64,000 bases of DNA from Nitrospinota bacterium (GTDB taxonomy: Bacteria > JADFOP01), in assembly GCA_022562795.1 (NCBI GenBank), contig JADFOP010000003.1, forward strand, positions 25,197 through 89,196, written 5' to 3'. Within the stretch, counting starts at the first letter, position 1. Every line of letters begins with the position of its first letter. A program made the translations under genes and the position numbers. The notes under the pieces are model-generated. The model made no database searches. It had not been told where the DNA came from and saw only the letters and a list, made by a program, of their open reading frames with translations. Of this stretch, positions 26,911 through 55,038 are shown one piece after another.

Positions 26911-27162
26911 GCAAGAAGGTTTTCGATGCCTACCCAACTGACTATTTCGGACATCACTCATCAATCCGGCTTCCCGTTTGTCCCGCCCATGCCCTGTGAA
27001 GGTTTCTTGGAAGATTTCCCCATTCCTTAAGCTGCTTAACCGACGAGCAAATTATACCGAAAAGGACTAAGGGGATTAGTATGCCCTGGCGGATTCGAGA
27101 CAAAAACGTCCGGAGCGCCGCTTCGGATGGGATCCCATGGCCTAGGAATAAGGTTTTTCATA

Positions 27163-27729
27163 ATGTCCGAACAGAAACGATGCTACGAAATCCTTGGATT
27201 GGAGCCTGGCGCGTCACCTGAAAGGGTGAAACAGGCGTATCGGGACATGGTACAGGTATGGCATCCGGATCGGTTTGAGCACGACCCCCGGCTCCAAAAG
27301 AAAGCTCAGGAGAAGCTAAAAGAAATCAACGAAGCCTACGGGAAACTGACCAACACCAATTCCGGCACAAGGGTTCGTAGAGGCAAGAGGTATGCAAAAC
27401 AATATGTCGGAGCCCAAAGGAGGGAACATTTCAGGGTAGAGTATCCATCGAGGTATAGGCCCAAACTCGTTATAGCTGAAAGTGAGTATGACGTTTTAGA
27501 CCTCTCCGAGAGCGGGGTTAGATTTTCCTGCAGCGGTGGGAGAGGGTTGGAACATAATATACAAGGAACAATAACATTCCATGATGGAGAGGACTTAGAG
27601 ATAGTAGGGGAAGTTTTCCGGTCCGGATACAACGAAATGACATTACGTCTTGTGAAAAGGGTTCCATTACAGAGGATCGTTAAGGAGCAGCGGCATCTTA
27701 TGAACGAATTATGGGTGTATGGAACGTAA
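27163..27729 (+). CDS. J-domain / PilZ-domain fusion protein
   Basis: N-terminal J domain (CYEILGLEPGASPERVKQAYRDMVQVWHPDRF; HPD tripeptide). C-terminal PilZ-like RREHFR...DLSESGVRF...GTITFHDG (RxxxR / DxSxxG c-di-GMP motifs). Lower GC than its neighbours. Confidence 0.65.
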   Translation: MSEQKRCYEILGLEPGASPERVKQAYRDMVQVWHPDRFEHDPRLQKKAQEKLKEINEAYGKLTNTNSGTRVRRGKRYAKQYVGAQRREHFRVEYPSRYRPKLVIAESEYDVLDLSESGVRFSCSGGRGLEHNIQGTITFHDGEDLEIVGEVFRSGYNEMTLRLVKRVPLQRIVKEQRHLMNELWVYGT

Positions 27730-28872: not shown

Positions 28873-29514
28873 ATGGCGACTCGTGCCCGCTACCTGGCGA
28901 TCGAGGGCCCCATCGGAGTGGGAAAAACCTCCCTCGCCACCCGGCTGGCCGAACGCCTGGGCGGTAGGCTGGTTCTGGAGCGGGTTGAGGCGAACCCATT
29001 TCTCGCCGATTTCTACCGCGACCGAGAGCGCCTCGCCTTTCAGACCCAGATCTTCTTTTTGCTGAACCGCTACCGGCAGCAGGAAGAGCTGGCCCAGCAC
29101 GAGCTCTTTGACAGAGTCACCGTTGCGGACTATCTTTTTATTAAGGACCGCATTTTCGCATCGCTGACGTTGGACGAAGCGGAGTTCGCACTCTACACCG
29201 AAATATTCAACCTTCTGCAGGGGAAGCTCCCTCGGCCAGACTTGGCTGTCTTCCTGCAGGCCTCCACAGAGGTCTTGATGGAGCGCATTGCCCAGCGGGG
29301 GGTCGTTTACGAGAGGAACTTCGATCAGGATTATTTAGAGCGCCTCGTGAGGGCGTACAACCACTACTTCTTTCATTACCGGGCCACGCCGTTGCTCGTG
29401 GTCAACACGAACGAAGTCGATTATGTCAATAAACAGGAGGATTTCGAAAGGCTCGTTAAAAAGATAGAGACCCACGAAATGGGGACTGCCTACTTCGTAC
29501 CGCTTGGATCCTGA
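28873..29514 (+). CDS. deoxynucleoside kinase (dAK/dGK/dCK family)
   Basis: P-loop IEGPIGVGKTS, followed by ERVEANPFL and the LID region. 213 aa. Confidence 0.8.
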   Translation: MATRARYLAIEGPIGVGKTSLATRLAERLGGRLVLERVEANPFLADFYRDRERLAFQTQIFFLLNRYRQQEELAQHELFDRVTVADYLFIKDRIFASLTLDEAEFALYTEIFNLLQGKLPRPDLAVFLQASTEVLMERIAQRGVVYERNFDQDYLERLVRAYNHYFFHYRATPLLVVNTNEVDYVNKQEDFERLVKKIETHEMGTAYFVPLGS

Positions 29515-29665
29515 GAGAGGGACCGAGACGGAAGCCCCGAGGTTACGGGCCCTTAAGGAGCGTCGAGAGGCCGTCGGGAGGGTTATTTCCTCTAAGGAGG
29601 AGAAGCCCAGCCCGCTAAAGGCGGCCGGCCCGACGACGAAGGGCTCCGAAGACTCAACAAAGGGA

Positions 29666-29698
29666 AACCTTCCGGCTCGACCGGAAGGTTTTTTTGTT
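29666..29698 (+). terminator. rho-independent terminator
   Basis: AACCTTCCGG-ctcga-CCGGAAGGTT followed by TTTTTGTTG. Confidence 0.85.
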
Positions 29699-29733
29699 GC
29701 GTCCGCCCACCCCGGAGGCGAAGGGAGGAGGAT

Positions 29734-30543
29734 ATGACCGAACGGAAGAAAGTGACCGTCCCACGGGTGGTGGCCAAGAAGGCCGCTGGCGAGAAAATAA
29801 CGATGGTGACGGCTTACGATTACCCTGCGGCCCGACTGGTCGACCGAGCCGGGGTCGACATTATTCTCGTCGGCGACAGCCTGGGTATGGTGGTGCTCGG
29901 CTACGAGGACACTACCAAAGTGACCATGGACGAGATGCTTCACCACAGCCGGGCCGTGGCCCGGGCCCGCCCTCGGGCCCTAGTGGTGGGGGATATGCCG
30001 TTCGGCACCTTCCAGGCCTCGGCCGATGACGCCGTTAGAAACGCCGTTCGCTTCGTTCAAGAAGGGGGCGCCGAGGCCGTCAAGCTCGAGGGGGGCCAGG
30101 CCGTGGCGTCCGCAGCAGCCAGTATCGTCGCCGCCGGCATCCCCGTCATGGGCCACATCGGGCTCACCCCACAGAGCATTCATGCCTTGGGAGGCTACCG
30201 CGTCCAAGGTCGCACGAGCGAGGCCGAAAGCCGGCTGCTCCGCGACGCCGCCTCCCTAGAGGCCGCCGGGGTATTCGCCGTGGTGCTCGAAGGCATGCCT
30301 TTGAAGCTCGGCCGCCGCATCACCGAAGCGCTCCGGGTTCCCACAATAGGCATCGGAGCAGGGCCTCACTGCGACGGCCAGGTGCTCGTACTACATGACT
30401 TGCTGGGCTTCTTCGACGGCTTCGCCCCGAAATTCGCAAAGGCTTACGCCGATCTCAATACGGTCATCGTTGAGGCGGTCGAGCGCTTCCGCGCCGAGGT
30501 GGAGGCCGGCGCCTTTCCAGACCGCGAGCACAGCTACGAGTGA
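29734..30543 (+). CDS. panB: 3-methyl-2-oxobutanoate hydroxymethyltransferase
   Basis: ITMVTAYDYPAARL...ILVGDSLGMVVLGYEDT signature. Confidence 0.9.
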   Translation: MTERKKVTVPRVVAKKAAGEKITMVTAYDYPAARLVDRAGVDIILVGDSLGMVVLGYEDTTKVTMDEMLHHSRAVARARPRALVVGDMPFGTFQASADDAVRNAVRFVQEGGAEAVKLEGGQAVASAAASIVAAGIPVMGHIGLTPQSIHALGGYRVQGRTSEAESRLLRDAASLEAAGVFAVVLEGMPLKLGRRITEALRVPTIGIGAGPHCDGQVLVLHDLLGFFDGFAPKFAKAYADLNTVIVEAVERFRAEVEAGAFPDREHSYE

Positions 30544-31418
30544 GGGCAACAGAGGTGAGTGTGGAGATTATCGAGACGGTTCGCGCCATGCAGGCCCGCT
30601 CTGAGGAGTGGCGGGCGGCGGGGGAGACCGTCGCCCTGGTTCCCACCATGGGGGCCTTTCACGAGGCCCACCTAAATCTCATGCGGGAGGGTAGACGCCG
30701 GGCCGACCGGCTAGTTGTGAGCCTATTCGTAAACCCCACCCAGTTCGGCCCGGGTGAGGACTACGAGGCCTATCCACGGAATCTTGAAGCGGATCTTAAG
30801 GCCACTGAGGACATCGGGCTTGACGTCCTCTATCACCCCACCGCCGAAGAGATGTACCCGGAAGGCTACGCCTCTTACGTTGAGGTCGAGGGCCTGACCG
30901 ACACTCTTTGCGGGCCGAGCCGGCCGGGCCATTTTCGGGGAGTCGTGACCGTCGTGATCAAGCTCTTCACCGCGGTAAAGCCTCATGTGGCCATCTTCGG
31001 CGAAAAGGACTTCCAGCAGCTTGCTGTGATACGCCGCATGGTGGCCGATCTTCACTTAGAGATCGAGATTGTCGGGATGCCCATCGTCCGGGAGGCCGAC
31101 GGGCTGGCCATGAGCAGCCGCAACCTCTACCTCTCGGCCGAGGAGCGTCGGACGGCCTTGGGTTTGAGCAGCTCCCTGGTCATCGCCCGACAGATGATTC
31201 TCGACGGCGAGAGAGATGTCCAGACGATTGAGGAAAAGCTCCGCTCTCACATAGAAGCGGCTGGGCCGTGCACGATCGATTACGTGGCCGTGGCAGACCA
31301 AGAGACCATGGCCCTCAAAGAGACAATTGACGGCCCGCTCCTTATAGCGCTGGCCGTCAGGGTGGGCCCCGCCCGCCTCATCGACAATACGGTCATTGAA
31401 CCACCGGCCTCATCATAG
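30540..31418 (+). CDS. panC: pantoate--beta-alanine ligase
   Basis: VPTMGAFHEAHLNLMR HIGH motif. GTG start overlapping the panB stop. Confidence 0.9.
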   Translation: MRATEVSVEIIETVRAMQARSEEWRAAGETVALVPTMGAFHEAHLNLMREGRRRADRLVVSLFVNPTQFGPGEDYEAYPRNLEADLKATEDIGLDVLYHPTAEEMYPEGYASYVEVEGLTDTLCGPSRPGHFRGVVTVVIKLFTAVKPHVAIFGEKDFQQLAVIRRMVADLHLEIEIVGMPIVREADGLAMSSRNLYLSAEERRTALGLSSSLVIARQMILDGERDVQTIEEKLRSHIEAAGPCTIDYVAVADQETMALKETIDGPLLIALAVRVGPARLIDNTVIEPPASS

Positions 31419-31798: not shown

Positions 31799-31858
31799 CC
31801 TTTCGTTGACAGACCCGCTGTCTGTCGGGTACCATCACCCCAGACTAAGGGAGGACCG

Positions 31859-32215
31859 ATGCGCATCGGCGCACTGGTCGAGTACACCGTCTACGGGGTC
31901 TTGTGGCTTCTTTGGAAGGGAGGCACGTGGCTCGGCCTGACCGACGACGGCTTGGCCTTTGGCCCCGGCACCCCCATGGTGATGCCCGATGAGTTCGCCC
32001 CGGTCGTGCCAGCGCCGCCGCCAGAGGCAACTCGGGCAGTGGCCGGCGAACCCGATGCCCGGCCCCTCGGCTTGGTGGGCCACCGCCGCTCCAGGACACT
32101 CCATCGCTCAACCTGCCGCCACGCCCCCCCACCGGAGCTTGCCCAGCCCTTCGCAGAGAGGTCCTCGGCCGAGGCCGCCGGATTCCGCCATTGTAAGGTC
32201 TGCACCCCCGATTGA
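31859..32215 (+). CDS. small protein with Ada-like Zn-binding C-terminal domain
   Basis: AAGGGAGG RBS. Hydrophobic N-terminus. C-terminus HRSTCRHAPP...AAGFRHCKVC resembles the Ada N-terminal Zn-binding module (CRPSC...AAGFRPCKRC). Confidence 0.45.
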   Translation: MRIGALVEYTVYGVLWLLWKGGTWLGLTDDGLAFGPGTPMVMPDEFAPVVPAPPPEATRAVAGEPDARPLGLVGHRRSRTLHRSTCRHAPPPELAQPFAERSSAEAAGFRHCKVCTPD

Positions 32216-32222
32216 AGGCCCC

Positions 32223-34262
32223 TTGCTCCTTCAGCGTATTGCCACCCCCGTCCTGGCTCTCCTCCTCTTGGTTACCCCGGCCTGGGGATCGGAGAAGCCC
32301 GAGCGCATCTACATATTCGCCTTAAAAGCTTACCAAGACGGACTTTATGAGGTCTCCGCCGATGCATTCCGCGAGTATCTGGCCTCGCCGGGACCGGGGA
32401 AGCAGCAAGCCGAGGCAGGCCTATTTCTCGGCCAAGCACTATTGGCCTTGGGGCGTGATGAAGAGGGCCTCGCCGCCCTCGAGGTCGCCGCCAAGACCGA
32501 CTCTAAAGCCAGCGTCGCTCCTCTGGCGCGTATGATTAGAGCCCAACGCTACCTCGACCTGGTCCGATATGGAGAGGCGGAGGCCGAATCTGGACGGTGG
32601 CTGCGCTACTTTCCCCGCCATCCTCTCCGATGGGAGGTCCGGCTCCTCAGGGGCCGAGCCCTGTCGGGGCTGAAGCGCTGGGACGAGGCGGCAGCCCTCT
32701 TCAAGGAGGTGGCCGAAGCTGAGAAAACGCCCGGTGATCTCCCGGTGGAGGCCTTATCCAGGCTCGCCGCCATTTGGACCCATCAGGGAAAGCCTGAGGA
32801 GGCGGCCGCAGCATGGGCGGCGCTCGTCGAGCGCGCCCCCGCAGACCCCCGGGCGGCCAAGGCCCTCCTCCACCTCGCGGCCCGAACGGAGCAGGCGGGC
32901 CGATTTGACGAGGCGCTGGCCCACGTCGAGGCCCTTACCGCGACTTTTCCCGAAGCTCCCGAGGCAGGTCTGGCAAAGCTCATTCGCGCCGATAGCCTCT
33001 TCGGTCTGGGGCGATGGTCGGAGGCCGCGGACGAATACCGCGAGGCGGCTCAAGGTGAGGGCGCGGTGGCCTTCAGCCCCTCCAAATGGGAGCGGGCCGG
33101 GCTTGCCGCCTACCGGGCCGAGCGCTTTCAGGAGGCGGCGGACGCCCTGGCCAGAGCCGGCGATGGCCCCGATGGGTCTAATCTCGCTCTTCGGATCCGG
33201 TCGCTTCGTAAGGTCGGAAAGCCTGTCGAGACTTTTAAGGCGTCTACCAAGCTACTGGCCTCATATCCGCGCAGTCCGTGGGCCGCAGAGGCTCTTTGGC
33301 CGACAATCACGCTTGCCCGAACGACCGGGCGTTGGGAAGAGGTCCGAAAGGCTGTTTCAGACTATGTGAGCGGGGCCCCGGCTGCTAAGGAGATGGAGGC
33401 CCGATACGGGCTGGCCCACGTGGAGCTTTACGGCGGCCGACCGGGTGAGGCCGCGCGGCTCTTCGGGGCATTGGCGGAGGCCGAAGGCGGGCTGGACCGA
33501 TTTAGAGATGTACGGTATAAACGGGCCGTGGCGCTCGTCGCCGCAGGCCGTCACATAACGGCCGTGGAGCTCGTAGAGGACTTGAGCGAGCAGGAGCGCG
33601 CCGCTGCAGGGTCAGAGTCGATCCTAGCATTGGAGGCCCATATACAGCGGGCTCAAGGGCACTACAGTGCAGCCGCCGACCGCTACCAATCCCTCTTGGC
33701 CCAGTGGCCCGAGGCGGGGGCGGCGGGTCGATGGCTGTTGGCTCTTGCCGAGATGGAGCAGGCCCGGGGGCGCTCGAGCGAGGCGCTCGAGGCATACGAG
33801 AAGTGGCTTGAGAGCCGCGCTGGAGACCCTGAGGCCCCTACAGTGCAGCTCGCAACTGCCCGGCTCATGGTCGCCGTAGGCCGACGCGACGATGCATGGG
33901 CGAGCCTCGAGGCGCTAGGCGCCGGCGATGATCCTGAGCTTGCCGCCCAAGCCTTCCTCCTGCAGGGGCGCATCGCCTTCGAGGAGCACGACTACGAAGC
34001 GGCGCTCAAGGCGGCCGCCAAGGCGCTGGAGGGTCTTTCGGCCGAGAGTCCAGCCCACGCCCTCGCACGCTGGCGGATGGCCCGAACCCTTGAGGAGGCC
34101 GGACGGCCTTCCGATGCGGCAACCCACTATCGGTGGCTGGCCGAGCATGTCGAGGATGATGAGGTGCGAGAAGCGTCCGAAGAGGGCCTCACACGCGTAA
34201 CCGAAGTTCGCAGAAACGCGGAAAAAGCCAAAATTAAGAAAAAGGTGGAAAAGGTTCCATGA
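32223..34262 (+). CDS. large secreted TPR-repeat protein (TTG start proposed)
   Basis: Signal-peptide-like LLLQRIATPVLALLLLVTPAWG, followed by >15 TPR-like repeats. The ORF-track 5' extension overlaps the upstream gene in another frame and is Pro/Arg-rich junk. Confidence 0.65.
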   Translation: MLLQRIATPVLALLLLVTPAWGSEKPERIYIFALKAYQDGLYEVSADAFREYLASPGPGKQQAEAGLFLGQALLALGRDEEGLAALEVAAKTDSKASVAPLARMIRAQRYLDLVRYGEAEAESGRWLRYFPRHPLRWEVRLLRGRALSGLKRWDEAAALFKEVAEAEKTPGDLPVEALSRLAAIWTHQGKPEEAAAAWAALVERAPADPRAAKALLHLAARTEQAGRFDEALAHVEALTATFPEAPEAGLAKLIRADSLFGLGRWSEAADEYREAAQGEGAVAFSPSKWERAGLAAYRAERFQEAADALARAGDGPDGSNLALRIRSLRKVGKPVETFKASTKLLASYPRSPWAAEALWPTITLARTTGRWEEVRKAVSDYVSGAPAAKEMEARYGLAHVELYGGRPGEAARLFGALAEAEGGLDRFRDVRYKRAVALVAAGRHITAVELVEDLSEQERAAAGSESILALEAHIQRAQGHYSAAADRYQSLLAQWPEAGAAGRWLLALAEMEQARGRSSEALEAYEKWLESRAGDPEAPTVQLATARLMVAVGRRDDAWASLEALGAGDDPELAAQAFLLQGRIAFEEHDYEAALKAAAKALEGLSAESPAHALARWRMARTLEEAGRPSDAATHYRWLAEHVEDDEVREASEEGLTRVTEVRRNAEKAKIKKKVEKVP

Positions 34263-37200
34263 TGCGGTTCTGGAGAGCCGTTGCCCTAGGGGCGTTGGTC
34301 GCGCCCCTTTCGGTGGCCTGGACGGCCCCCGAGGGACGTCCTCCCATCCGTCTGCCGGAGGTCGTCATCGTCGGCCTGCCTGTTGCCGAGCCGACCGAGG
34401 CCAAAGAGCCGATTGGGTTTCCGACGACAGGGCCCGAAAGAGAGATGCCACGCGAGGTTAAAGAGCCGGTCGATGTAGCTTCCCTCCAGGAGGCGGGCCG
34501 TACGCTACCGGTCTCCCCGGCCCCGGGATGCGCCTACAGAAGCAGTGTGACCACGGCGGTGGCAAAGGTCTTCCTGAAAGACGAAGCCCAGTACAAGCTC
34601 GGCCTCTACCGCATCCAGCATGGCCAGCCCGCCGAGGCTATCGGGGCCTTTGAAAGCCTCCTCGCCAACTACCCGGCGAGCCTGTGGCGGACGGGTGCCC
34701 GATATTGGATCGGTGAGGCCCGCCTCGCACTGGGAGATGCGGATCGGGCCATGGCTTCCTTCGAGGCGGCCGAAGCCGAGCCACCACGTCAGCGTTTGGC
34801 CGATTACGCCATTTACGCCAGCGCATGGCTCCACGTTAGGCGTGGGGAGCACGCGCTTGCGCTGGAGAAGCTCGACCGCCTCTCCGCTCAGTACCGGACA
34901 AGCCCTGTGATGCCGGCGGCCCTTGAGCTCAGGAGCATCGCTCACGCGAATCTCGGCGAGTTTGACCTCGCATCGAAGGCCTCTCGTCATATTGCCCAAA
35001 TTTATCCCGGAAACCGCCGGGCTGCTGTAGCCCGCTTCTGGCAGGCTGAGAGCGCCTACCGGGCGGGCGCATTCGAGGAGGCCTGGGAGGCATACCAGGC
35101 CTTCCTCGCGCGCCATCCGGGACACCCGCGCTCTGCCGAGGCCCTATACGGACTCGCCTGGACGGGCTTGGCGCTGGGAGACGGCCATCGAGCCCTTGAT
35201 GCCTTTATGCGCTTTGAGGAGAGATACCCAGGGCATCGGCTTCTGCCATCGGTCCGATACGGGCTGGTCCGCTCCGCTCTGGCCTCGGGCCGGCCTGATT
35301 TAGCCCGCTCGCGCCTTGCGTTGATTAAAAAAACGGCGCCCGGCCATTGGGCCACTGCGGCCCTGGCTGCCTTAGCGGACGCGGACTTCAACTCCGGGAG
35401 GCACGAAGAAGCCCTAGCGGCCTACAGAGCAATTGCGGCCGCGGGCTCAGGCGGGCCCTACGAGCTCGTGGGGCTTCTCAGGGGCGCCGAGAGCGCCCTG
35501 GCCCTGGAGCGATACGACGAGGCCCTATCCATCTACGACACCGCGCTGCTGAGGCCCCTGGATGAGGAGGTCTACATGACGCTCCTTGTAAAACGCGGCG
35601 TGGCCCTTTACGAGAGCGCCCGCTATCGGGAGGCGGCCGTCACTTTCGGCGAGGCGGCGGATCTCGACCGTGAATCACCCGCAGGGGGGGAGGCCCGCTG
35701 GCTGCAGGCCGAAAGCCTCTACCAGGCCCGCGAGCTCGGACAGGCCAGGGCGATCTTCCGGGCTCTCGAGCCCGACGGGCCTCGCGGCGCCGAAGCCCTC
35801 TTCGGCCTGGCGTGGGTTGAGGCCGACATGGGCCATCTTAATGAGGCTCGGGCCTTGCTCGACCGTGTTGCCCTGGGGCGGCCAGACCATCCACTCGCAC
35901 CAGCGGCTCGTCTCAAGGCCGCTTCACTGGTGGCTGATGCCAAGGGCTACGTCGAGGCGGCTGAGCGGCTTAAGGCCCTGCTCGTCGCCTACCCCGAAAG
36001 CGACGAGGCCCCTCGGGCCGCATGGAGGATTGGGCTCATGCTCGCCCGGGCAGGGGAGTTTCGAAAAGCCGCAAACGCCCACGCCGCTTTCCTCGGTCGC
36101 TACCCGGACCACGACTTGGCCGACGACGCCCAGTTCGAGCTCGCCATGAATCTCTACCGAACGGACGCCTTCGGGCGGGCCCGGGTGGCTCTGAAGCGAC
36201 TCATCGGCGACTACCGCACCTCGCCCCACTTGCCCAAGGCCTTCCTCACGCTAGGGGATACCTACTACAACGAGAGTGACTACGCGTCGGCCGAGGACGC
36301 CTATCGCCAGGTGGTGAAGCTTTATCCCACCGATGCGGCGGCCGTGGAGGCGGACTACGGCATCGTGCTGACCCATCTGAGACGGGATGCCTGGGAGGAA
36401 TTCCTCACCGGGGCCGAACGATTTCTGGCCGCTCACCCCGACCATCCTCTCTCTGTGACATTGGCTTTTCAGGTGGGAGACAGCGCTGCCAGCCGCAATG
36501 AACGGGCCCAAGCCATAGGCGCCTTCGAGCGGGCGGTGAGACTGTTCCCGAAAAGCGAATTGGCCGACGATGCCCTCTTTCGCATTGGCGAGCTCACCAG
36601 GGCCGAGGGCCGAGAGAGCGAGGCCGCCGAGGTATTCGGGCGGCTGCTGTCCGAGTACCCAAAAAGCAACTTGGCCGTGGACGCCCACTTTGCCCTGGCC
36701 GAGCTCTATGAGGGGCAGCGGCGGTGGGAGGAGGCGCTGACCCACGCCCGGGGGGTTATCGCCGCTGGGGCGGGTTCAGGCAGGCTCCAGGCGGCCGCTA
36801 TCATCCAAGGACGCTCATTGGTCCACAGTAGAAAGCCCTCGGCGGCCGCGGAGGCTTTTCAGATGGCCGTCAACGCCGGGCCTGAACAACCCATAGGCCG
36901 CAGGGCGGCCCTCGAACTCGGCGACTTGCAGGTAGGCCGCAAACGCTATAGCAAGGCCCTGATCGCCTACCAGGTTGCGGCCCAGGCGGACGAGCCCTCC
37001 GTGGCCGTGCAGGGAAATTACGGAACGGCCCGCATGCTAGAAGCCACGGGCGATAGGCAAGCCGCCGTGGCGGCTTACCTTAAGGTCTTCTACCTCTACC
37101 CCAAGTTTCGAAGCTTAGGGGCTAAATCGATGCTTTCCGCCGCAGACGGGTATGCGGCCCTCGGACGTCAAGACCTCGCCCTGTCCTTGTACAAGAAGCT

Positions 37201-37288
37201 TCTCGCCGAGTACCCTAAAGAGCCGGCGGCCCAAGAGGCCAGAACAAGCCTGAAGGCGGCAGGCGAAGCCGTGGGAGAGGAGAGATAA
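34259..37288 (+). CDS. giant secreted TPR-repeat protein (1009 aa)
   Basis: Signal peptide MMRFWRAVALGALVAPLSVAWTA, followed by continuous TPR/YbgF-like repeats. ATGA overlap with the upstream TPR gene. Confidence 0.75.
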   Translation: MMRFWRAVALGALVAPLSVAWTAPEGRPPIRLPEVVIVGLPVAEPTEAKEPIGFPTTGPEREMPREVKEPVDVASLQEAGRTLPVSPAPGCAYRSSVTTAVAKVFLKDEAQYKLGLYRIQHGQPAEAIGAFESLLANYPASLWRTGARYWIGEARLALGDADRAMASFEAAEAEPPRQRLADYAIYASAWLHVRRGEHALALEKLDRLSAQYRTSPVMPAALELRSIAHANLGEFDLASKASRHIAQIYPGNRRAAVARFWQAESAYRAGAFEEAWEAYQAFLARHPGHPRSAEALYGLAWTGLALGDGHRALDAFMRFEERYPGHRLLPSVRYGLVRSALASGRPDLARSRLALIKKTAPGHWATAALAALADADFNSGRHEEALAAYRAIAAAGSGGPYELVGLLRGAESALALERYDEALSIYDTALLRPLDEEVYMTLLVKRGVALYESARYREAAVTFGEAADLDRESPAGGEARWLQAESLYQARELGQARAIFRALEPDGPRGAEALFGLAWVEADMGHLNEARALLDRVALGRPDHPLAPAARLKAASLVADAKGYVEAAERLKALLVAYPESDEAPRAAWRIGLMLARAGEFRKAANAHAAFLGRYPDHDLADDAQFELAMNLYRTDAFGRARVALKRLIGDYRTSPHLPKAFLTLGDTYYNESDYASAEDAYRQVVKLYPTDAAAVEADYGIVLTHLRRDAWEEFLTGAERFLAAHPDHPLSVTLAFQVGDSAASRNERAQAIGAFERAVRLFPKSELADDALFRIGELTRAEGRESEAAEVFGRLLSEYPKSNLAVDAHFALAELYEGQRRWEEALTHARGVIAAGAGSGRLQAAAIIQGRSLVHSRKPSAAAEAFQMAVNAGPEQPIGRRAALELGDLQVGRKRYSKALIAYQVAAQADEPSVAVQGNYGTARMLEATGDRQAAVAAYLKVFYLYPKFRSLGAKSMLSAADGYAALGRQDLALSLYKKLLAEYPKEPAAQEARTSLKAAGEAVGEER

Positions 37289-37292
37289 GCTA

Positions 37293-37934
37293 ATGGTGGA
37301 GGCGTTGCGTACCGTGGTCGGATACTTCCCCTTGGGCACGACCCTCGTAAAAGGGGGCATCCTCATGGTGCCAATCGGGATATGCTCGCTCCTTGCGGTG
37401 GCCATCGTCCTGGAGCGCTTCTTCATGCTTCGCCAACCCAGGGTTATCTCGCCCGAGGTCCTTCGCCGGGTTGAAAGCCATCTTCGAGAGGGTGAGACGG
37501 ACGAGGCGCTCTCCCTTTGCCGCCACCGACCGTCCGCCATTACCCGGGTCCTCCACGTCGGGATCGCCAACCACCAAAGGCCCAAAGGCGAAATCAAGGA
37601 GATTATCGAGGACGCAGGGCGCCACGAGGTTCCCAGCCTCGAGCGATACCTGGGGGTCCTGGGGACCATCGCGTCAATCTCGCCGCTCCTTGGGCTGCTG
37701 GGGACGGTGACCGGAATGATTAAGGTCTTCAATGTCATCGCAGTCAGGGGTGTCGGCCACCCGGGAGCCCTGGCCGGTGGGATCAGCGAGGCTCTAATCA
37801 CTACCGCCGCAGGCCTGTCCGTCGCCATACCATCGTTGGTCTTTTACAACTATTTCGTTACCAAAGCCGACGGGCTCGTTATCGAGATGGAGAAGGCCTC
37901 GTTGCGTATGCTCGACATACTGAAGAGCGACTGA
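37293..37934 (+). CDS. exbB: MotA/TolQ/ExbB proton-channel protein
   Basis: Three TM segments. ExbB/TolQ family pattern ISPLLGLLGTVTGMIKVF. Confidence 0.85.
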   Translation: MVEALRTVVGYFPLGTTLVKGGILMVPIGICSLLAVAIVLERFFMLRQPRVISPEVLRRVESHLREGETDEALSLCRHRPSAITRVLHVGIANHQRPKGEIKEIIEDAGRHEVPSLERYLGVLGTIASISPLLGLLGTVTGMIKVFNVIAVRGVGHPGALAGGISEALITTAAGLSVAIPSLVFYNYFVTKADGLVIEMEKASLRMLDILKSD

Positions 37935-37944
37935 GGGGGGACCG

Positions 37945-38358
37945 GTGGAGTTTGCCAGCAGACGTCGCGTAAACGCGAGCCTCAACATCACGCCGCTAAT
38001 CGACGTGGTCCTGCTCCTTCTAATCTTCTTCATGATATCGACGACATTCGTCGTCCAGCCTGGCATCCCCATCCAGTTACCGGAGGCCGTCTCGGCTTCC
38101 GGCCAGATACAGCGCGAATGGGTGGTGGCGGTCACCGCCCAGGACGAAATCTACCTGAACGAAGTCCGGGTGACCCTGAAAACCCTCCAGCGTCAGCTTG
38201 AGGCGGCGGTCGGAAGGGGCGAGATCGAAGTCCTGATAATCAAGGGTGACGAGGTGGCTCGTCACGGTCGAATCGTGAAAGTGATGGACGCCGCCAAGCT
38301 GGCCGGCGTCAAGCGTCTGGCCATCGCCACGGCGCACAAATCGACCGGTCGGCCATAA
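37945..38358 (+). CDS. exbD: ExbD/TolR biopolymer transport protein
   Basis: NITPLIDVVLLLLIFFMISTTF single TM with the essential Asp. Confidence 0.85.
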   Translation: MEFASRRRVNASLNITPLIDVVLLLLIFFMISTTFVVQPGIPIQLPEAVSASGQIQREWVVAVTAQDEIYLNEVRVTLKTLQRQLEAAVGRGEIEVLIIKGDEVARHGRIVKVMDAAKLAGVKRLAIATAHKSTGRP

Positions 38359-38365
38359 AATCCCC

Positions 38366-39268
38366 ATGTCCAACGCTATTGAGATCGAGAGCTTCCTGGA
38401 CCCCCCGGCGACCCGCGGGCCCCTGGCGGCAGCTCTCGCGTGGTCGGTCGTCCTCCACGGCCTGCTCGTCTACCTCTCACCTCCTCTAGGCCAGGCGCAT
38501 ATCCCCAACAAAGTCGTCTACACGGAAGTTGAGCTCCTCCGGATGCCAGAGGCGCCTCCAATCGTGCGCCGTGCCCCTCCCCCTGCGCCGGCGACCACGC
38601 CTGCCGTCCAGCAGAAGGTCTGGAAGTCCGTCGAGGGCGAAGCCGCCGCCGTCCTGGAGCGCCGGGCGCTGGAGGCGCTGCGCCGGGCCCGGACAGAGAG
38701 CCTGGGAAGTACCCTGGCCTACCCGGGTCTAGACCTTACGTTGCCTAAGACGCCCGCCGAGGAGCCCGCTAAGCGGGGTGAGGAGCCCGAGGCCATGTTG
38801 CTCCAGGAGTCCCTCGCCCGGGCCGGCCGGGCTGTGGCAATGCCGGGGGTCCCCACGGGTGAAGAGCTCCGCGCAGAGCCGGGAATTCCGGGCGAGCGGA
38901 AGCCCTTTGCCTTAGCTAGCGAGACCGCCCGGCGTCTGGCCCGCAACCTAATGGAGGCGGAGCTAGCCAGGAAGCCCTCGCCTGCGCCGCCACCCACATC
39001 AACGGGGATCGCGGGCCCGGCGGCCAGCAGGCAAGTTCTCTACCGTCCACCCCTGCCGAAAGTTACCGTGGAGCGCGAGACGGCCGTTCTCCTCAAGTTC
39101 TGGGTACGACCAGATGGAACGGTGGGCCGGGTCGTGCCGCTGCGCAAGGGCGATCCCAGGCTGGAGGCTGTGGCGGTTCGCTTCCTCAAGGGATGGCGAT
39201 TCGATCCGCTGACGGAGAAGACGCCAGAGCAGTGGGGCACGATCCCTATCGTCTTTCGAAGGCCGTAA
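38366..39268 (+). CDS. TonB/TolA-like energy transducer
   Basis: N-terminal TM anchor, Pro/Ala-rich spacer, then C-terminal TonB_C-like KVTVERETAVLLKFWVRPDGTVGRVVPLRKGDPRLEAVAVRFLKGWRFDP. Confidence 0.7.
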   Translation: MSNAIEIESFLDPPATRGPLAAALAWSVVLHGLLVYLSPPLGQAHIPNKVVYTEVELLRMPEAPPIVRRAPPPAPATTPAVQQKVWKSVEGEAAAVLERRALEALRRARTESLGSTLAYPGLDLTLPKTPAEEPAKRGEEPEAMLLQESLARAGRAVAMPGVPTGEELRAEPGIPGERKPFALASETARRLARNLMEAELARKPSPAPPPTSTGIAGPAASRQVLYRPPLPKVTVERETAVLLKFWVRPDGTVGRVVPLRKGDPRLEAVAVRFLKGWRFDPLTEKTPEQWGTIPIVFRRP

Positions 39269-39369
39269 GGGGAGCTCTAAGACGGGACCCCCTTTCCCTA
39301 TTTACACTCCCGGGGCCCTTTCGTAGACTAAGGCATCATCATCGCGCCTCAGCGCCGGGGCTTGCAAAC

Positions 39370-40968
39370 ATGAGCCGACAACTCCTTCGGATTCTCACAT
39401 CCTGCGCCCTTCTGCTTGTGGCCTCGGGCGCTTCTGTTTCCTTGAGCGCCGAGACCAAAGAGATTTTGGCCATTCCTGTGGACCCATTCGGCGTACCAGG
39501 CTTCATCAGATTGCTCCACGACCCCGTGGCTGACGAGATAATTCTTGCAGTCACCCCTCAGGACCTGCGCTCCACCGCGTATGACCGCTTCTTCGCCACC
39601 TGGGAGGTGTCGACACCCGAGGGGGTCCAGACCCAGCCTTCACCACCGGCGAGCCTCTCGACCTTTGGACCCTGGTCAGAGACCGTACGCCACCCGGTTA
39701 GTGGCCGTTACAGAGCTGATCTCGTCTTGGAGCGGCCCCGGCCCGACGGCCGCCTGGAAGCCTCACGGCGCCTCTCCATCAATTTCGTCTTCGACGCCGA
39801 ATCCTCTACCGCTGAACTTGACGCCAAAGCACCCCCGCGTGCCATGCCCCGGGCTGGTCGGGCGGGGAGCCTCGCCTCGCTCCGCCGGGCTGGGGCTCTA
39901 GAGATAGTTCGGGTTAAGGCCGTGGGAGCTTCCGCAGTCCATCCTGCAGCAGGTCTTTTTCGGCCCGAGGAGCGGGCTGTCACCATCAACTACGCCTGGC
40001 GAGGCGCCAGGCCGGGCACCCCGCTGGTCGCCACGTGGTATTACCTGGAGGGGATGGAGCGGCTTCAATGGTTGACCCAAAGGGAAATCCTTCAGGCTAT
40101 CGAGGGCAAAGGCCGGTTTACCTTCGTTATCGACGAGGAAGAACAGTGGTTTACGGGTGATTACGTGGTGGAGATAACAGCCGCCGGCCAATTGCTCCGG
40201 GAGGTCTTTTTCGCCGTGCGTCCGTGGGAGAAGCTCGACGCCGGCCGATCGCTCGTGGTCGTGGCGATGAGCGTCACCGCATCAGGGGCTGTCCCCCAAC
40301 CGGTGGGCCCGGGGGCAGTAGTGTCACCAGACGCCCAGCAGGTAGACCTGCGGGTAGCCTACAGGGGCGGAACGCCGGGTCAGCGCCTCACCTCCAGTTG
40401 GCATTTCGTCGAAGGGGCCCTTCGCCGTCCGTTCAGCAAGTCAACAGTCGAAATCCTAAGGCCCGATTACGAGGCAGCGTTCTCGTTTACCTTGCGACCT
40501 GGAGAGAAGTGGCTACCGGGAACCTACGAGGTGGACATTTTCTCTGGGACCGATTTGGTGGCCACAGCGACCTACCGGGTCAGTGCACCGGCAGATAGGG
40601 CCGCATGGCCAGCTGCAGAGCCCGCCCGCGTGGCGCTTCGGCCCGACCTGGTCCCCGCCGGTGAGGAGTGCATCGTCGAGGGACGGGGCTTTTCCGCCAA
40701 CGGCCGTATCTCCCTGGAAGGCATTGTGTTGATCGACGCCTCGGGCCGGACCGAGCGCTTTCAGGGGGCGCCCCTGAGGCTCTCGCCTCAGGGGACCTTC
40801 GCCTTCCGCTTCCGGATACCCCCGAACACTGCTCCGGGAGTTGCCTCTATATCCGTGACCGATCAGGCTCACCGCACGGCCACTGTGAGCTTTCAGGTGG
40901 CGCGGCCTCAGACGGTCAAGGAGCAGATTAAAGAGATCGAGCGCCAGTGGAAAGGTATTTTCCGTTGA
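39370..40968 (+). CDS. secreted protein with internal ~100-aa repeats
   Basis: Signal peptide MSRQLLRILTSCALLLVASGASVS. Two repeat copies visible (TINYAWRGARPGTPLVATWYYLEG / LRVAYRGGTPGQRLTSSWHFVEG). C-terminal Ig/IPT-like beta-rich segment. Confidence 0.5.
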   Translation: MSRQLLRILTSCALLLVASGASVSLSAETKEILAIPVDPFGVPGFIRLLHDPVADEIILAVTPQDLRSTAYDRFFATWEVSTPEGVQTQPSPPASLSTFGPWSETVRHPVSGRYRADLVLERPRPDGRLEASRRLSINFVFDAESSTAELDAKAPPRAMPRAGRAGSLASLRRAGALEIVRVKAVGASAVHPAAGLFRPEERAVTINYAWRGARPGTPLVATWYYLEGMERLQWLTQREILQAIEGKGRFTFVIDEEEQWFTGDYVVEITAAGQLLREVFFAVRPWEKLDAGRSLVVVAMSVTASGAVPQPVGPGAVVSPDAQQVDLRVAYRGGTPGQRLTSSWHFVEGALRRPFSKSTVEILRPDYEAAFSFTLRPGEKWLPGTYEVDIFSGTDLVATATYRVSAPADRAAWPAAEPARVALRPDLVPAGEECIVEGRGFSANGRISLEGIVLIDASGRTERFQGAPLRLSPQGTFAFRFRIPPNTAPGVASISVTDQAHRTATVSFQVARPQTVKEQIKEIERQWKGIFR

Positions 40969-41462: not shown

Positions 41463-42935
41463 ATGCCGCGAGCCGTGATGAATCGTCGTCGCTCCATATG
41501 CCTCCTGGCTTCTGCCCTGCTGGCGCTCGCCCTTATGCTGGGGTCCGCCTTGGGCGCGGAGCCCTCACCGCAGCCTGAGGTATCCCAGAGGCTCCTTGGC
41601 GCTGGACGGGATGCTGCCGATAGAGGGGACTATGGCGAAGCGGATTTAGCTCTGCGTGGAGCGCTGGCCTCCTGTCGGGCCGTGGGGGATGAAGGCTGTA
41701 TGTGGACGGCGCTCGCCTCGCTGGCCGCCGTGGCCCAGGCCCGTGGAAAGCTCGATGAGGCGAGGGGCTTCGCCAACGAGGCGCTGGTGGTCGCCCACCG
41801 GATGGGCGACCGGCCGGCCGAAGCCGAGAGCTACCACATCCTGGCGTCGGTGTTGGCCGAGACGGGAAATTCGGAAGAGGCCTGGGCAGCCGCGGTACGG
41901 GTCCTGGCCGTGGGCAACGAGCTTGAGCGGGCCGACTTCCAAGCAAGGGCCCTGAATGTCTTCGGTAGGTTGGAGCTGGCCGCCGGTAGAACGGATGAGG
42001 CCTGCGGGGCCTTCGAGGAGGCCTCGGTCCGAGCCAAGCTGTCGGGTATCGTCTCCCTGGGGATGAGGGCGCTGATGGGCGTCGGGCGCTGTCGCCTCGC
42101 CCGGGGCGAACTTAAAGAGGCAGACGCCGCCTTCGAGGAGGCCTTCACCGAAGCGGTCGGTTTGGGGGATGAGCTTTCGGTGGCTCGGCTCATGCAGGAG
42201 ATGGGACGGCTCGCCTCCGCTCGCGGTGAGCCCGCCCGAGCCGAGGAGCTCTTGGACGAGGCCTTGAGGAAGTTCCGCGCATTGGGGGCCCCGACCTACG
42301 CAGAGAGGGCGGCCGCCGACCTGGAGAAGCTGCGGGCCGAGGCCCGCCTTCCGACTGCGTCCGAGAAGGCCGAGAGGGCCGCCGATGCCCTACGCCGGGG
42401 CCTGGAGCGCTTCGAGGCGGGCAACTTGGAGGCGGCGGTCCGGGAGCTAAAGGAAGCCGTAACCCTCGCCCCATACGATCTGGAGGCCCATCAGGCTCTG
42501 GGGCGGGCCTACCTCGACCTCGGCCTCCAAGCGCTGGCCGATGAGGAGAGCCGATATTCCTCGGCTTTGGCGGCGAATAACTCCACCCTCGGCCTCGACT
42601 CCCCAAACCCTCTCTACCGCGATTACTTCTCTAAGCTGCACCGCCAGATCGACAGGGTCTACGTCGTCCCAGCCGAGGTATCGAGCGGAGAGCTGGCCGG
42701 CGCCGTCAAAGTGACCTTTACGCTGGAGCGGACGGGCCGACTCGCCGATGCCTCTGTAGAGAGTTCGGACGGCTCGACCCTCCTCAGCGAAGCAGCCCTT
42801 ACCACGCTGAGGCTCGCCGATCCATTCAATCCATTTCCTGACGGTATGCCCCAAGAGCGAGTCACAATCACGGCCCGGTTCGTGTACGATAAAGATTTAG
42901 CTAAGGGGCCTACTTCATCCCCGTGGAAAAAGTAA
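41463..42935 (+). CDS. secreted TPR protein fused to a TonB C-terminal domain
   Basis: Signal peptide, then TPR-like helical repeats, then a C-terminal TonB_C fold (GELAGAVKVTFTLERTGRLADASVESSDGSTLLSEAALTTLRLADPFNPFP). Confidence 0.6.
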   Translation: MPRAVMNRRRSICLLASALLALALMLGSALGAEPSPQPEVSQRLLGAGRDAADRGDYGEADLALRGALASCRAVGDEGCMWTALASLAAVAQARGKLDEARGFANEALVVAHRMGDRPAEAESYHILASVLAETGNSEEAWAAAVRVLAVGNELERADFQARALNVFGRLELAAGRTDEACGAFEEASVRAKLSGIVSLGMRALMGVGRCRLARGELKEADAAFEEAFTEAVGLGDELSVARLMQEMGRLASARGEPARAEELLDEALRKFRALGAPTYAERAAADLEKLRAEARLPTASEKAERAADALRRGLERFEAGNLEAAVRELKEAVTLAPYDLEAHQALGRAYLDLGLQALADEESRYSSALAANNSTLGLDSPNPLYRDYFSKLHRQIDRVYVVPAEVSSGELAGAVKVTFTLERTGRLADASVESSDGSTLLSEAALTTLRLADPFNPFPDGMPQERVTITARFVYDKDLAKGPTSSPWKK

Positions 42936-43185: not shown

Positions 43186-44496
43186 ATGCAGAGGCGGGAC
43201 ACATTAGGAAATCATTCTTCGGCCCGGAGAGCGTCCTTTCTAGCGTGGCGAGGCGACGAACGGGGGGCTGTTGCCGTTCTTGTAGCGGTGCTCCTGGCTG
43301 TTCTGATCGGTTTTGCAGGCCTCGTCATCGACCTTGGCCATCTGTTCGTCGTCCACTCCACGCTTCAAAACGTCGCCGACTCGGCCTCCCTAGCCGCCGC
43401 CTCAAGCCTGAGCTACGGCCCCGATGAGGCCAGAGGCCAGGCTCAGCTCCTAGCCCATAAGCACGCTGTAGACGGCACTCCAGTCGCCCTCGCTCTGGTG
43501 GACATCGAGCTTGGCACCTGGGATAAGGAGACCAAGACTTTCACCGTCTTGGAGCCAGCCCAAGAGGCAAACGCCAACAGTGTCCGGGTCATGGCTCAGC
43601 GCTCCCAAGACCGCAACAACCCCATATTTCTCATCTTCATGCCCTTGTTCGGGCACCAGGCATCGGACGTGAGAGCGATCTCCGTGGCGTACCAGGCGGG
43701 TTCGTGTATGGGGGGCATTATCGGCGGGAGACGGATAACCCTCAACAGCTCAAGTGTCACCGATAGCTACAATTCCGACTTCGGGCCGTACAGCCCCGCT
43801 ACAGCGAATCAAAATGGGGATGTCTGCAGCTGCGGAGACATCGAGCTCAACTCGTCGGCCGGCGTAAATGGCGATGCGGGGCCTGGCGATGGTCATGAGG
43901 TTATCCTGAATAGCTCCGCCTACGTCACAGGCTCCACTACCCCCGGGGGCTGCCCGGTATTACCCGACGTCGAGCTCGGTGACATCGCCACAAACAACGA
44001 CAACGGCAACATCCCGACAATGACGGACGACGGCAATGATCCTTTTGAGGATGGGCCTTACGATCTCGCACTTAATAGAGGCGACAGTATCACTTTGCCC
44101 GGTGGCCGGTACTACTTCAACTCGGTCGTGCTTAACAGCTCCTCGACGCTAAGCGTTGCGGGTCCGACCGTCATATACGTTACCGGGGAGTTCGCTGTGA
44201 ATGGTTCGGGCATCATGAATCCAGGCCTAAATCCGCAAGACCTCGTTGTTATGATCTCCTCCACCTTGGAGGTGCAACTTAACAGCAGCGTCGATTTCTA
44301 CGGCGTCATCTACGCGCCCAACGCGCGTGTCGTCAATAACAGCGGCGTCGAATTTTATGGGTCAATAATGGCAGATGAGGTCACCTTCAACAGTTCGGTC
44401 CAGTTCCATTACGACGAAGCGCTAAGCGATCTGGCGTTCCTCGACGGCGTGGAGATCGTCTTCAATAGCACTTTGAGCTCCACTCTCGTCCGGTAG
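43186..44496 (+). CDS. TadE/TadG-like (Flp pilus assembly) N-domain protein with LNSS beta-repeats
   Basis: N-terminus RGDERGAVAVLVAVLLAVLIGFAGLVIDLG matches the Tad-like TM/prepilin-type segment. The C-terminal half has at least 8 roughly periodic [LVF]N[SN]S motifs (ITLNSSSV, IELNSSAG, VILNSSAY, VVLNSSST, VQLNSSVD, VVNNSGVE, VTFNSSVQ, IVFNSTLS). Confidence 0.55.
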   Translation: MQRRDTLGNHSSARRASFLAWRGDERGAVAVLVAVLLAVLIGFAGLVIDLGHLFVVHSTLQNVADSASLAAASSLSYGPDEARGQAQLLAHKHAVDGTPVALALVDIELGTWDKETKTFTVLEPAQEANANSVRVMAQRSQDRNNPIFLIFMPLFGHQASDVRAISVAYQAGSCMGGIIGGRRITLNSSSVTDSYNSDFGPYSPATANQNGDVCSCGDIELNSSAGVNGDAGPGDGHEVILNSSAYVTGSTTPGGCPVLPDVELGDIATNNDNGNIPTMTDDGNDPFEDGPYDLALNRGDSITLPGGRYYFNSVVLNSSSTLSVAGPTVIYVTGEFAVNGSGIMNPGLNPQDLVVMISSTLEVQLNSSVDFYGVIYAPNARVVNNSGVEFYGSIMADEVTFNSSVQFHYDEALSDLAFLDGVEIVFNSTLSSTLVR

Positions 44497-45424: not shown

Positions 45425-45500
45425 GGAGGGAACGGGAGAAGAGGGTGGACGATAGAGCGACGCTCGCTCTTTCACTAGCCCCAGATTGGGAGTTCAACCG

Positions 45501-46160: not shown

Positions 46161-46240
46161 GCCGAAGAAGAAAAGGAAAAAATGGATCGCCGGCCAAGCG
46201 AACCCGCGATTTCAATAAAGGAGGGGGAGGAGGTGAGGTC

Positions 46241-47413: not shown

Positions 47414-47538
47414 GAGGGAGCAAGGGGTATGACGTGGTGCTCGGCAGTGGGGTGGCCTGAATATAAACCGATGGGTAGCAAGGAACGCCGGCCAATCTCG
47501 CCGGCAATTTCAAGGACCAATAGAGAGGAGGTAAAACC

Positions 47539-47844
<306 letters not shown>

Positions 47845-47852
47845 GGCAGCCC

Positions 47853-48152: not shown

Positions 48153-48163
48153 GGGAGATAGCC

Positions 48164-54799: not shown

Positions 54800-54980
54800 C
54801 ACAGTTCCTTCGGGTAACACGTCATGGGGATACCCAATCGGCCTGTGCCGTCGTGCGCTACGCTCGGTGAAAAGGTCTCGAAGCGGTGACGCGGTTGCCC
54901 CGGCTTTACTGTAACCGAGGTTTTCAGGTGGTTGACCCAAATTATAACCCGAATCCGAGGCGCTTTCAAGCGCTAGAGCC

Positions 54981-55009
54981 TTGACGGACCCCCAAGGCGT
55001 CCGTATAGT
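54981..55009 (+). promoter_or_regulatory. sigma-70-like promoter
   Basis: TTGACG-N17-TATAGT ~30 nt upstream of the 55039 ORF. Confidence 0.4.
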
Positions 55010-55038
55010 GGGCCTTTGCCACATCGAGGAGGTCGTGC

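Follow-up and report, generated by a model that had tools for sequence, protein, structure and literature searches.

A conserved module of secreted TPR-solenoid genes and a predicted ExbB-ExbD-TonB-type motor in uncultured bacteria

Results

A TPR-exbB-exbD-tonB unit recurs across several phyla

We analyzed a 64,000-nucleotide stretch of DNA from a Nitrospinota bacterium (contig JADFOP010000003.1 of assembly GCA_022562795.1; this whole stretch is hereafter the window), in which a predicted ExbB-like/ExbD-like pair is co-transcribed with a TonB-family protein and two secreted solenoids built of tetratricopeptide repeats (TPRs), denoted TPR1 and TPR2. This module is a real, conserved unit across several phyla of uncultured bacteria and is an uncharacterized variant among the TPR-coupled Tol/Ton/Glt-type transducers, the novelty of which is a TonB-box-like tether on TPR2 that is missed in the first-pass annotation of this DNA. 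We lean, by a modest degree, toward a reading in which the locus is a dedicated Ton/Tol-type force-transduction module driven by the proton motive force (PMF) that would pull the soluble TPR scaffold, with the binding of this scaffold as ligand being the part that we infer.

The window carries panB-panC-panD followed by a run of six ORFs, which were confirmed at the positions, in the order, and on the + strand that the first-pass annotation had given. The sequence, read directly, contains the ATGA start/stop overlap that had been described at the TPR1/TPR2 junction as well as the 4-nt gap between the TPR2 stop codon and ExbB; 10 nt separate ExbB from ExbD, and 7 nt separate ExbD from the TonB-like gene. 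What had been called a 680-aa TPR protein is indeed a large secreted TPR protein, with a corrected length of 679 aa, that of the NCBI-called orthologue, since its start codon is TTG at 32223 and not ATG.

The layout is identical in a 95%-identical relative (L003, GCA_032840045.1). The gene order TPR-TPR-exbB-exbD-tonB is found in L003, L088, L089, and L095, and a one-TPR order, TPR2-exbB-exbD-tonB, in L011, L012, and L096; because both orders recur across loci, the arrangement is not due to chance. Comparing the genomic context of exbBD orthologues, as had been proposed, returns the same module at each of these loci and bears out the earlier view that two large secreted TPR proteins and a motor form one tightly packed conserved unit. 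L088 (from a 5.17-Mb genome) and L089 (GCA_964575845.1), both traced to their contigs, encode ExbBs of 62 to 68% identity in the order TPR (760–840 aa), TPR (1009–1048), ExbB (199), ExbD (138), and TonB-like protein (290–304), and L095, a contig of a Nitrospinota metagenome-assembled genome (MAG), reads TPR (616), TPR (1019), ExbB, ExbD, and TonB_C. The gene at the TPR1 position thus spans 616 to 840 aa in L003, L088, L089, and L095. Two of the one-TPR loci, L011 and L012, derive from Thermodesulfobacteriota MAGs and the third, L096, from a sediment contig; a single ExbD-like gene is present in the window and in every locus named so far. The carriers of the module are Tectomicrobia, Nitrospinota, Thermodesulfobacteriota, and "Deltaproteobacteria" MAGs, and an ExbB homologue at 86% identity is labeled Candidatus Tectimicrobiota. 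A scan of a genome collection with ExbB gave relatives of at most 55% identity among the matches listed, and the homologues at 60 to 68% were reached through exact-protein look-ups.

Synteny anchored on TPR2 similarity was abandoned after it gave mixed contexts in L001, L002, and L004 to L007. Repeat similarity alone is unreliable, and therefore ExbB-anchored loci and the N-terminal motif described below were used instead. The presence of a large gene upstream of the nearest ExbB relatives was likewise rejected as a criterion, several such genes being ComEC, UvrA, GGDEF, phosphoenolpyruvate carboxylase, or PolA by Pfam. A looser relative of the module, uvrA-TPR(~830 aa)-ExbB-ExbD-TonB-like(~210–255 aa), is common in Omnitrophota/Planctomycetota-labeled MAGs; the ~830-aa Omnitrophota TPR protein is at most a possible TPR1 orthologue, having N-terminal similarity at E 3e-8, yet aligning over 770 residues with TPR2 at E 9e-40. 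uvrA adjoins the large TPR gene in the Omnitrophota-type loci L014, L025, and L030 (confirmed with Pfam), as well as in L004 and L006, the latter of which carries a protein labeled Candidatus Krumholzibacteria, and a gene of the same size, presumably uvrA, lies upstream of the TPR gene in further loci of the Omnitrophota type, L017, L021, L036, L048, L054, and L086. Upstream of the module, a deoxynucleoside kinase gene (dNK) and panC (28873–31418 in the window) are also present in L088 and L089, an unusually stable synteny for unrelated functions at this level of ExbB identity.

The motor pair and the transducer compared with the Tol and Ton families

The ExbB-like and ExbD-like proteins are ~25% identical to E. 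coli TolQ/ExbB and TolR/ExbD alike. The Thr of the second transmembrane segment and the Glu, Thr, and Pro of the third are invariant between the ExbB-like protein and E. coli TolQ and ExbB, as is the essential transmembrane Asp (Asp20) between the ExbD-like protein and E. coli TolR and ExbD; judged from these alignments, the proton-path residues of the pair are intact. In the signal-peptide and membrane-segment predictions that had been proposed as a check, both TPR proteins have type I signal peptides, and three, one, and one hydrophobic segments are predicted in the ExbB-like, ExbD-like, and TonB-like proteins, respectively.

TolQ and TolR are the top-ranking curated models of the pair, and the cut-offs of the Tol and Exb models are both missed by a factor of 2 to 3. 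The ExbB-like protein scores 97.7 bits with TIGR02796 tolQ (cut-off 221) and 65.2 bits with TIGR02797 exbB (206), and the ExbD-like protein 73.6 bits with TIGR02801 tolR (127.3), 60.4 with ExbD_2 (123), and 46.6 with ExbD_1 (153). These scores accord with the first-pass annotation, in which the locus was suggested to be other than a standard Tol-Pal or TonB system. In a PDB search, the ExbB-like protein matches TolQ and ExbB almost equally (2.5e-13 and 6e-12), and the ExbD-like protein ranks ExbD slightly above TolR. A phylogeny of the pair against the known clades had also been suggested; our neighbor-joining tree of ExbB homologues, a rough one with three E. coli references and no bootstrap, places neither TolQ nor ExbB of E. 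coli inside the clade that the retrieved relatives form together, and we use it for this non-nesting alone.

The transducer passes two cut-offs for a TonB C-terminal domain (TIGR01352, 27.1 bits; PF03544, 24.6 bits; scores in Table 1). Its transmembrane helix, preceded by ~18 residues, carries SxxxH as WSVVLH and is followed by a long Pro-rich/charged spacer. Contact of TolA and of TonB with the stator is made through SxxxH (PMC7391070, PMC12204202), the TolA residues being Ser18 and His22 (PMC7391070). Four motifs of the transducer, SxxxH, (Y/F)(R/K)P, KFWVRPDGTV, and YLKxWRF, can be aligned to E. coli TonB and recur in the orthologues, for SxxxH in those whose N-terminal helix was read, since the L011 and L012 starts are called too short. 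The Ser/His (SHLS-type) motif expected of a Tol-Pal transducer is therefore present, and, being common to TonB, it is nondiscriminating.

TPR2 is a giant solenoid with a TonB-box-like motif on a disordered tether

Neither TPR protein has a lipobox Cys, and the signal peptide of TPR1 ends in TPAWG, with SE following. AlphaFold2 models both proteins as solenoids consisting wholly of TPRs, 650 and 890 residues long, with ~18 repeats in TPR1 and ~25 in TPR2. In the TPR1 model (pLDDT 90.5), helices span residues 26 to 676 right after the signal peptide, leaving no N-terminal tether. TPR2, on the other hand, is composed of a signal peptide (aa 1–22), a disordered tether of ~85 residues (aa 23–105), and ~25 TPR hairpins (aa 108–1000); its model has an overall pLDDT of 87, with values below 50 for residues 10 to 47 and 78 to 105 and ~93 in the solenoid of ~50 helices. 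The TPR2 family comprises 417 cluster representatives at E < 1e-30 in an exhaustive HMMER search, mostly of 980 to 1050 aa and alignable from end to end, from Nitrospinota, Tectomicrobia, Deltaproteobacteria MAGs, and Ca. Anaeroferrophillus; the names that the homologues bear in their sources are limited to "TPR repeat protein," "hypothetical," and "TolA-binding protein." A Foldseek search of TPR2 against the PDB returned generic TPR scaffolds, among which the bacterial envelope proteins noticed were chains K and L of 9hmf (C. jejuni motor scaffold), and there is also a weak match to the C-terminal model of FlcA (E 9e-6).

Within the disordered tether, ~10 residues past the predicted signal-peptide cleavage site, lies the motif PPIRLPEVVIVG. 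Its consensus, (I/L)(K/R)LPEVVIVGx(D/E), with variants such as LPPVVIVGEE and LPEVVITAKD, is found at positions 17 to 60 of 29 sequences, the overall identity of which is just 25 to 32%. A permissive form of the pattern matches 27 of 137 N-terminal windows versus 6 of 687 windows taken from the interior of these proteins, an enrichment of ~23-fold, and exbB-exbD-tonB lies directly downstream of all eight motif-bearing TPR2 genes of known context. In sequence, in its placement soon after the signal peptide, and in predicted disorder, this motif resembles a TonB box (DDTIVVTA in E. coli FepA) or the N-terminal segment with which TolB binds TolA (EVRIVIDSG in E. coli). Our literature searches turned up no account of the module and none of a periplasmic TPR protein that bears a TonB box.

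A different disposition is seen in Bacteroidota-like contigs, in which the gene after that of a motif-less TPR homologue of ~1000 aa encodes a secreted protein of ~580 to 660 aa that has no annotation (L001:13100–14917, L005:13280–15274, L097:3054–3707, L007:13017–14750). Three of these four downstream proteins (L001, L005, and L097) have a box-like N-terminus, LPEFVITG, LPEFEITG, and REFEIRG, respectively; that of L007 reads KEITVERD. Going by these short strands, the box may reside on a separate partner protein in such contigs, and the ~600-aa protein could act at the outer membrane as a partner that bears a TonB box.

The module is probably distinct from known Tol-Pal and TonB-uptake systems

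Membership in Tol-Pal and in TonB uptake both fail at the level of equivalog models, and the expected partner genes were not seen near the module. With E. coli TolB, Pal, and FepA as phmmer queries, a search of limited sensitivity, no TolB-, Pal-, or FepA-like ORF was found, either across the 64-kb window or in the ~10 kb around each TPR-exbB locus fetched; the only Pal match lies in L082, an unrelated TonB2-like locus. No unassigned ORF of the window exceeds 600 aa, i.e., is long enough for a TonB-dependent receptor. The first-pass annotation had reported no adjacent TolB, Pal, or receptor gene and had held that such a gene in conserved synteny would mark an ordinary Tol-Pal or TonB locus; in keeping with that report, tolB and pal are within 10 kb in none of eight orthologous loci from at least four lineages. 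The earlier reading was not overturned by the condition that it had set for itself, as far as these stretches go.

The module might nonetheless be a split Tol-Pal system, the membrane proteins of which are TolQ, TolR, and TolA, the TPR proteins being oversized CpoB/YbgF and tolB-pal lying elsewhere in the genome. The two best NCBIfam matches of the motor pair are consistent with this, as are the ten matches of TPR2 to the YbgF/CpoB-type TPR model TIGR02795 and the retrieval of TPR2 and its homologues with E. coli CpoB as query. CpoB binds TolA (PMC7391070), and split tol-pal loci are documented, as is a TonB-like (nonhelical) TolA outside Gammaproteobacteria (PMC12204202). All Tol scores, however, are 2- to 3-fold under the equivalog cut-offs, and TPR2 reaches only 106 bits with the full-length CpoB model NF008068 (cut-off 383). 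CpoB is a protein of ~260 aa consisting of a coiled coil and a three-repeat TPR domain, a coiled coil that is missing here, where the repeats number ~18 and ~25. Further against a split system are the higher rank of ExbD over TolR in the PDB search, the position of E. coli TolQ and ExbB outside the whole clade of the rough tree, and the score of zero out of eight loci for tolB/pal, even though tol-pal gene order is normally highly conserved (PMC7391070). The features that are shared are a 5:2-type motor family, the SxxxH transducer helix, a CpoB/YbgF-type TPR partner that in Tol-Pal binds the transducer, and a soluble periplasmic protein, TolB, with a disordered N-terminal strand that is captured by the transducer C-terminal domain. 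In our module, it is the TPR protein that carries the candidate "TolA box," and a TolB-like N-terminal box on TPR2 suggests that TPR2 replaces TolB rather than accompanying it. We consider a split Tol-Pal system unlikely.

We regard as still less credible, and indeed as very unlikely, an ordinary TonB uptake system with TPR accessories, the receptors of which are encoded elsewhere. The features in common are a TonB C-terminal domain above its cut-offs, SxxxH, a Pro-rich spacer, an ExbB/ExbD-family pair in which ExbD outranks TolR in the PDB search, and a ligand motif that resembles a TonB box. The receptors of a TonB system are frequently encoded at some distance from it (PMC12204202), and the TonB2 operon of Vibrio, in which TtpB and TtpC are encoded upstream of exbB2, has downstream of tonB2 a ~425-aa TPR protein, TtpD2, that is essential (PMC6957404). 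The locus studied here, however, lacks genes of the TtpB/TtpC type (neither a large ExbB fusion like TtpC nor a gene the size of TtpB is present), and its TPR proteins are encoded upstream, are 2 to 4 times larger than TtpD2, and are translationally coupled to the motor. TonB2-like loci are among those fetched (L063, L067, L068, L070, L073, L075, L078, and L082), and they differ in architecture, with a 400- to 600-aa ExbB-related gene upstream of exbB that the window lacks, and in ExbB clade, their short ExbBs being among the most distant relatives listed (34–41% identity). The ExbB/ExbD equivalog cut-offs are far from reached, a separate and more canonical orphan TonB is encoded in the window (14523–15542, TonB_C 60 bits), and the box is on the soluble solenoid TPR2 itself and not on the plug of an outer-membrane barrel.

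The Agl-Glt core complex is the closest published look-alike

The first-pass annotation had set the pairing of TPR scaffold and motor apart from standard TonB and Tol-Pal systems; its uniqueness was overstated, since two precedents exist. The closest published look-alike is the Agl-Glt core complex, with the signal-peptide TPR proteins GltD, GltC, and GltE (1191, 673, and 471 aa, respectively), the AglR/AglQ/AglS motor, and the TonB-like transducer GltG; its core genes are also clustered in nongliders, in which their function is unknown (PMC3169522). Another close one is the Fibrobacter succinogenes cluster FSU_2396-2403, which reads OmpA-TPR-TPR-?-ExbB-ExbD-ExbD-TonB (PMC6851124).

These precedents raise the possibility that the module is orthologous to the Agl-Glt core complex, the ancestral form that gave rise to the gliding machine of Myxococcus and to the Nfs machine of its spore coat. 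The two inventories match: clustered genes for a PMF motor of the TolQ/ExbB plus TolR/ExbD type, a TonB_C-bearing transducer, and secreted TPR proteins, one of ~1000 to 1200 aa plus others of ~470 to 680 aa. The order of the F. succinogenes cluster points the same way, and the TonB-like C-terminal domain of GltG docks in models on the N-terminal part of GltD (PMC11761067), much as we propose for the transducer and the N-terminal part of TPR2. The differences are several. Each module locus has one ExbD paralogue versus AglQ plus AglS, the transducer has no match to FHA (the N-terminal FHA being a Myxococcus feature), and its C-terminal domain is of the generic TonB type (37.6 bits) rather than that of AgmX/PglI, for which the C-terminal model, NF033768, gives 12.8 bits at E 0.098 (cut-off 40). 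TPR1 and TPR2 are not lipoproteins, whereas GltD and GltE start at Cys1, and no outer-membrane barrel or OmpA gene is near the module of the window. The Myxococcota/Bdellovibrionales loci L022, L057, L072, and L077, which had been retrieved with the ExbB profile and were candidates for Agl/Glt loci, proved not to be Glt-like. A disordered tether with a TonB-box-like strand is not described for GltD in PMC3169522 or PMC11761067. Membership in the Glt family is thus not supported by the features tested, the comparison with Glt being drawn from described features and not from sequences, and we hold orthology to be distinctly unlikely.

Two other systems share single aspects of the module. Large periplasmic TPR proteins organize MotA/ExbB-family 5:2 motors in flagellar-stator scaffolds (C. 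jejuni 9hmf chains K and L; the spirochaete collar protein FlcA), whereas no flagellar genes are found here and the stator is of the ExbB/ExbD and not the MotA/MotB type, with a TonB-like transducer in addition. Transducers with a vWA domain, encoded with a TPR gene, tolQ, and two tolR genes, are uncharacterized and were proposed to represent a new PMF-driven envelope system (PMC12204202); they too combine an uncharacterized TPR gene, a Tol/Exb-like motor, and a noncanonical transducer, and differ from the present module in having vWA in place of a TonB C-terminal domain, two motor genes of the ExbD type versus one, and other host lineages.

A model for a PMF-driven TPR scaffold

In the force-transduction reading that we favor, the TonB-like C-terminal domain of the transducer would capture the LPEVVIVG box on the TPR2 tether via β-strand augmentation, analogous to the pairing of TonB with the TonB box and of TolA with TolB's N-terminus, the latter of which is known to occur by β-augmentation (PMC7391070). 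The PMF-driven motor would then pull or reposition the 25-repeat TPR2 scaffold, with TPR1 as its partner, and along with it any cargo that is attached to it at the outer membrane or at the cell wall. The outer-membrane tethering, export, and gliding-type roles named in the first-pass annotation stay at the level of suggestion. A role in envelope maintenance or assembly is likely favored over nutrient uptake because of the CpoB-like repeats, the 9hmf analogue as a scaffold of 5:2 motors, and the location of related exbBD pairs beside lipopolysaccharide (LPS) genes. In 12 gammaproteobacterial loci among the matches listed (L015, L016, L018, L029, L032, L034, L035, L037, L050, L053, L061, and L074), exbB-exbD is followed by msbA and/or lpxK, in L050 by both above cut-off (MsbA, 745 bits; LpxK, 231 bits), and seven of the 12 have a ComEC/YcaI-like gene upstream of exbB-exbD. 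In E. coli, the order is ycaI-msbA-lpxK, without an exbBD insertion. L011 and L012 have lptF upstream of their TPR2-exbBD-tonB module and a gene for an LpxL-type acyltransferase downstream.

Several points weigh against the pulled-scaffold model. The LPS-gene neighborhood was not seen in the two-TPR loci, the window included, and the LPS link is for this reason only a lead. The TonB-box-like motif is missing from the related single-TPR modules of Omnitrophota/Planctomycetota-labeled MAGs and from L013 and is therefore not universal to TPR-exbBD-tonB clusters. The partner search, as stated above, was bounded in sensitivity and in radius.

More tentatively, and as a possibility that we would not yet call probable, the module could represent a third class of Ton/Tol-like system, the ligand of which would be neither an outer-membrane barrel nor TolB, but a box-bearing soluble TPR solenoid that the PMF moves or tensions. 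Such a class would be widespread in uncultured Nitrospinota, Tectomicrobia, and Desulfobacterota-like lineages and may be a simple ancestral state of the Agl-Glt gliding core. To our knowledge, the understood routes by which inner-membrane energy is used across the periplasm are few, namely TonB uptake, Tol-Pal, flagellar stators, gliding motors, and Zor-type defense. If the model holds, pulling on a soluble TPR scaffold would be a new output for 5:2 motors, and the four or five genes of the module would offer a much simpler model for the role of the nonmotile core complex of the Myxococcus gliding machine. The model predicts that the 12-residue peptide PPIRLPEVVIVG binds the last 90 residues of the TonB-like protein encoded next to it; the peptide RPPIRLPEVVIVGLPV is the proposed ligand of a recombinant TonB-like C-terminal domain. 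For annotation, the ~1000-aa "TolA-binding protein" or "TPR repeat protein" genes beside exbBD call for caution in that they form a coherent family of at least ~400 clusters at 50% identity.

Features of the locus and flanking genes

Table 1. Features of the TPR-exbB-exbD-tonB locus and its immediate surroundings; positions are those of the window
Feature	Position	Strand	Basis or remarks
Sigma-70-like promoter candidate, TTGACA-18-TACCAT	31806–31835	+	10/12 consensus matches; consensus match alone
Ada_Zn-like ORF, 118 aa	31859–32215	+	Pfam PF02805 25.2 bits, cut-off 23 (marginal)
TPR1, secreted solenoid, 679 aa	32223–34262	+	TTG start; five TIGR02795 stretches
TPR2, secreted, 1009 aa	34259–37288	+	Ten TIGR02795 stretches, 260 bits total
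TonB-box / TolA-box-like strand motif PPIRLPEVVIVG	34340–34375	+	TPR2 aa 28–39
ExbB/TolQ-family proton channel subunit, 213 aa, 3 transmembrane segments	37293–37934	+	PF01618 116 bits
ExbD/TolR-family subunit, 137 aa, 1 transmembrane segment	37945–38358	+	GTG start; PF02472 105 bits
TonB-family transducer, 300 aa	38366–39268	+	TIGR01352 37.6 bits; PF03544 27.2 bits
Secreted 532-aa protein, family without name, possible lineage-specific accessory gene	39370–40968	+	Kept only in L003
Natural fusion of TPR region and TonB C-terminal domain, 490 aa, possible lineage-specific accessory gene	41463–42935	+	TPR_12 56 bits, TonB_C 38.5 bits

The promoter-like site is positioned between panD and the Ada_Zn-like ORF, which is probably co-transcribed with the operon. 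The first-pass annotation had counted this ORF as part of the system; its only tblastn match is in L003, with none in L088, L089, L095, L096, L011, or L012, and we place it outside the conserved module as lineage-specific because it is found in L003 only. The 532-aa protein and the TPR-TonB_C fusion, the latter likewise kept only in L003, were rejected together with it as core parts of the module on the same grounds. The 532-aa protein, for which no Pfam or NCBIfam match was obtained, has its own promoter-like site at 39301–39329, internal repeats of ~110 aa, and a mature N-terminus, ETKEILAIPVDP, that is strand-like in look. As a matter of speculation, this protein and the fusion might constitute a second ligand/transducer pair.

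The orphan TonB gene (− strand, 339 aa; TonB_2, 38 bits) adjoins genes for archease and RtcB and has no exbBD beside it. A 200-aa protein encoded at 27127–27729 (+) joins a DnaJ J-domain to a PilZ (c-di-GMP-binding) domain, and 43186–44496 (+) encodes a TadG-like Flp-pilus assembly protein with a DUF7305/ice-binding-like adhesive domain; this protein is missing at the corresponding position in the close relative L003. A bacterial microcompartment (BMC) locus, identified through synteny with L003, spans 44552–49594 (+) and comprises genes for an RpiR-like regulator, a tandem-BMC shell protein, a sigma-54 activator, a BMC shell protein, an EutN/CcmL vertex protein, and an aldehyde dehydrogenase. 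Finally, 51776–55111 (−) encodes an 1111-aa fusion of an HpcH/HpaI aldolase/citrate-lyase-like domain and a MaoC dehydratase domain.

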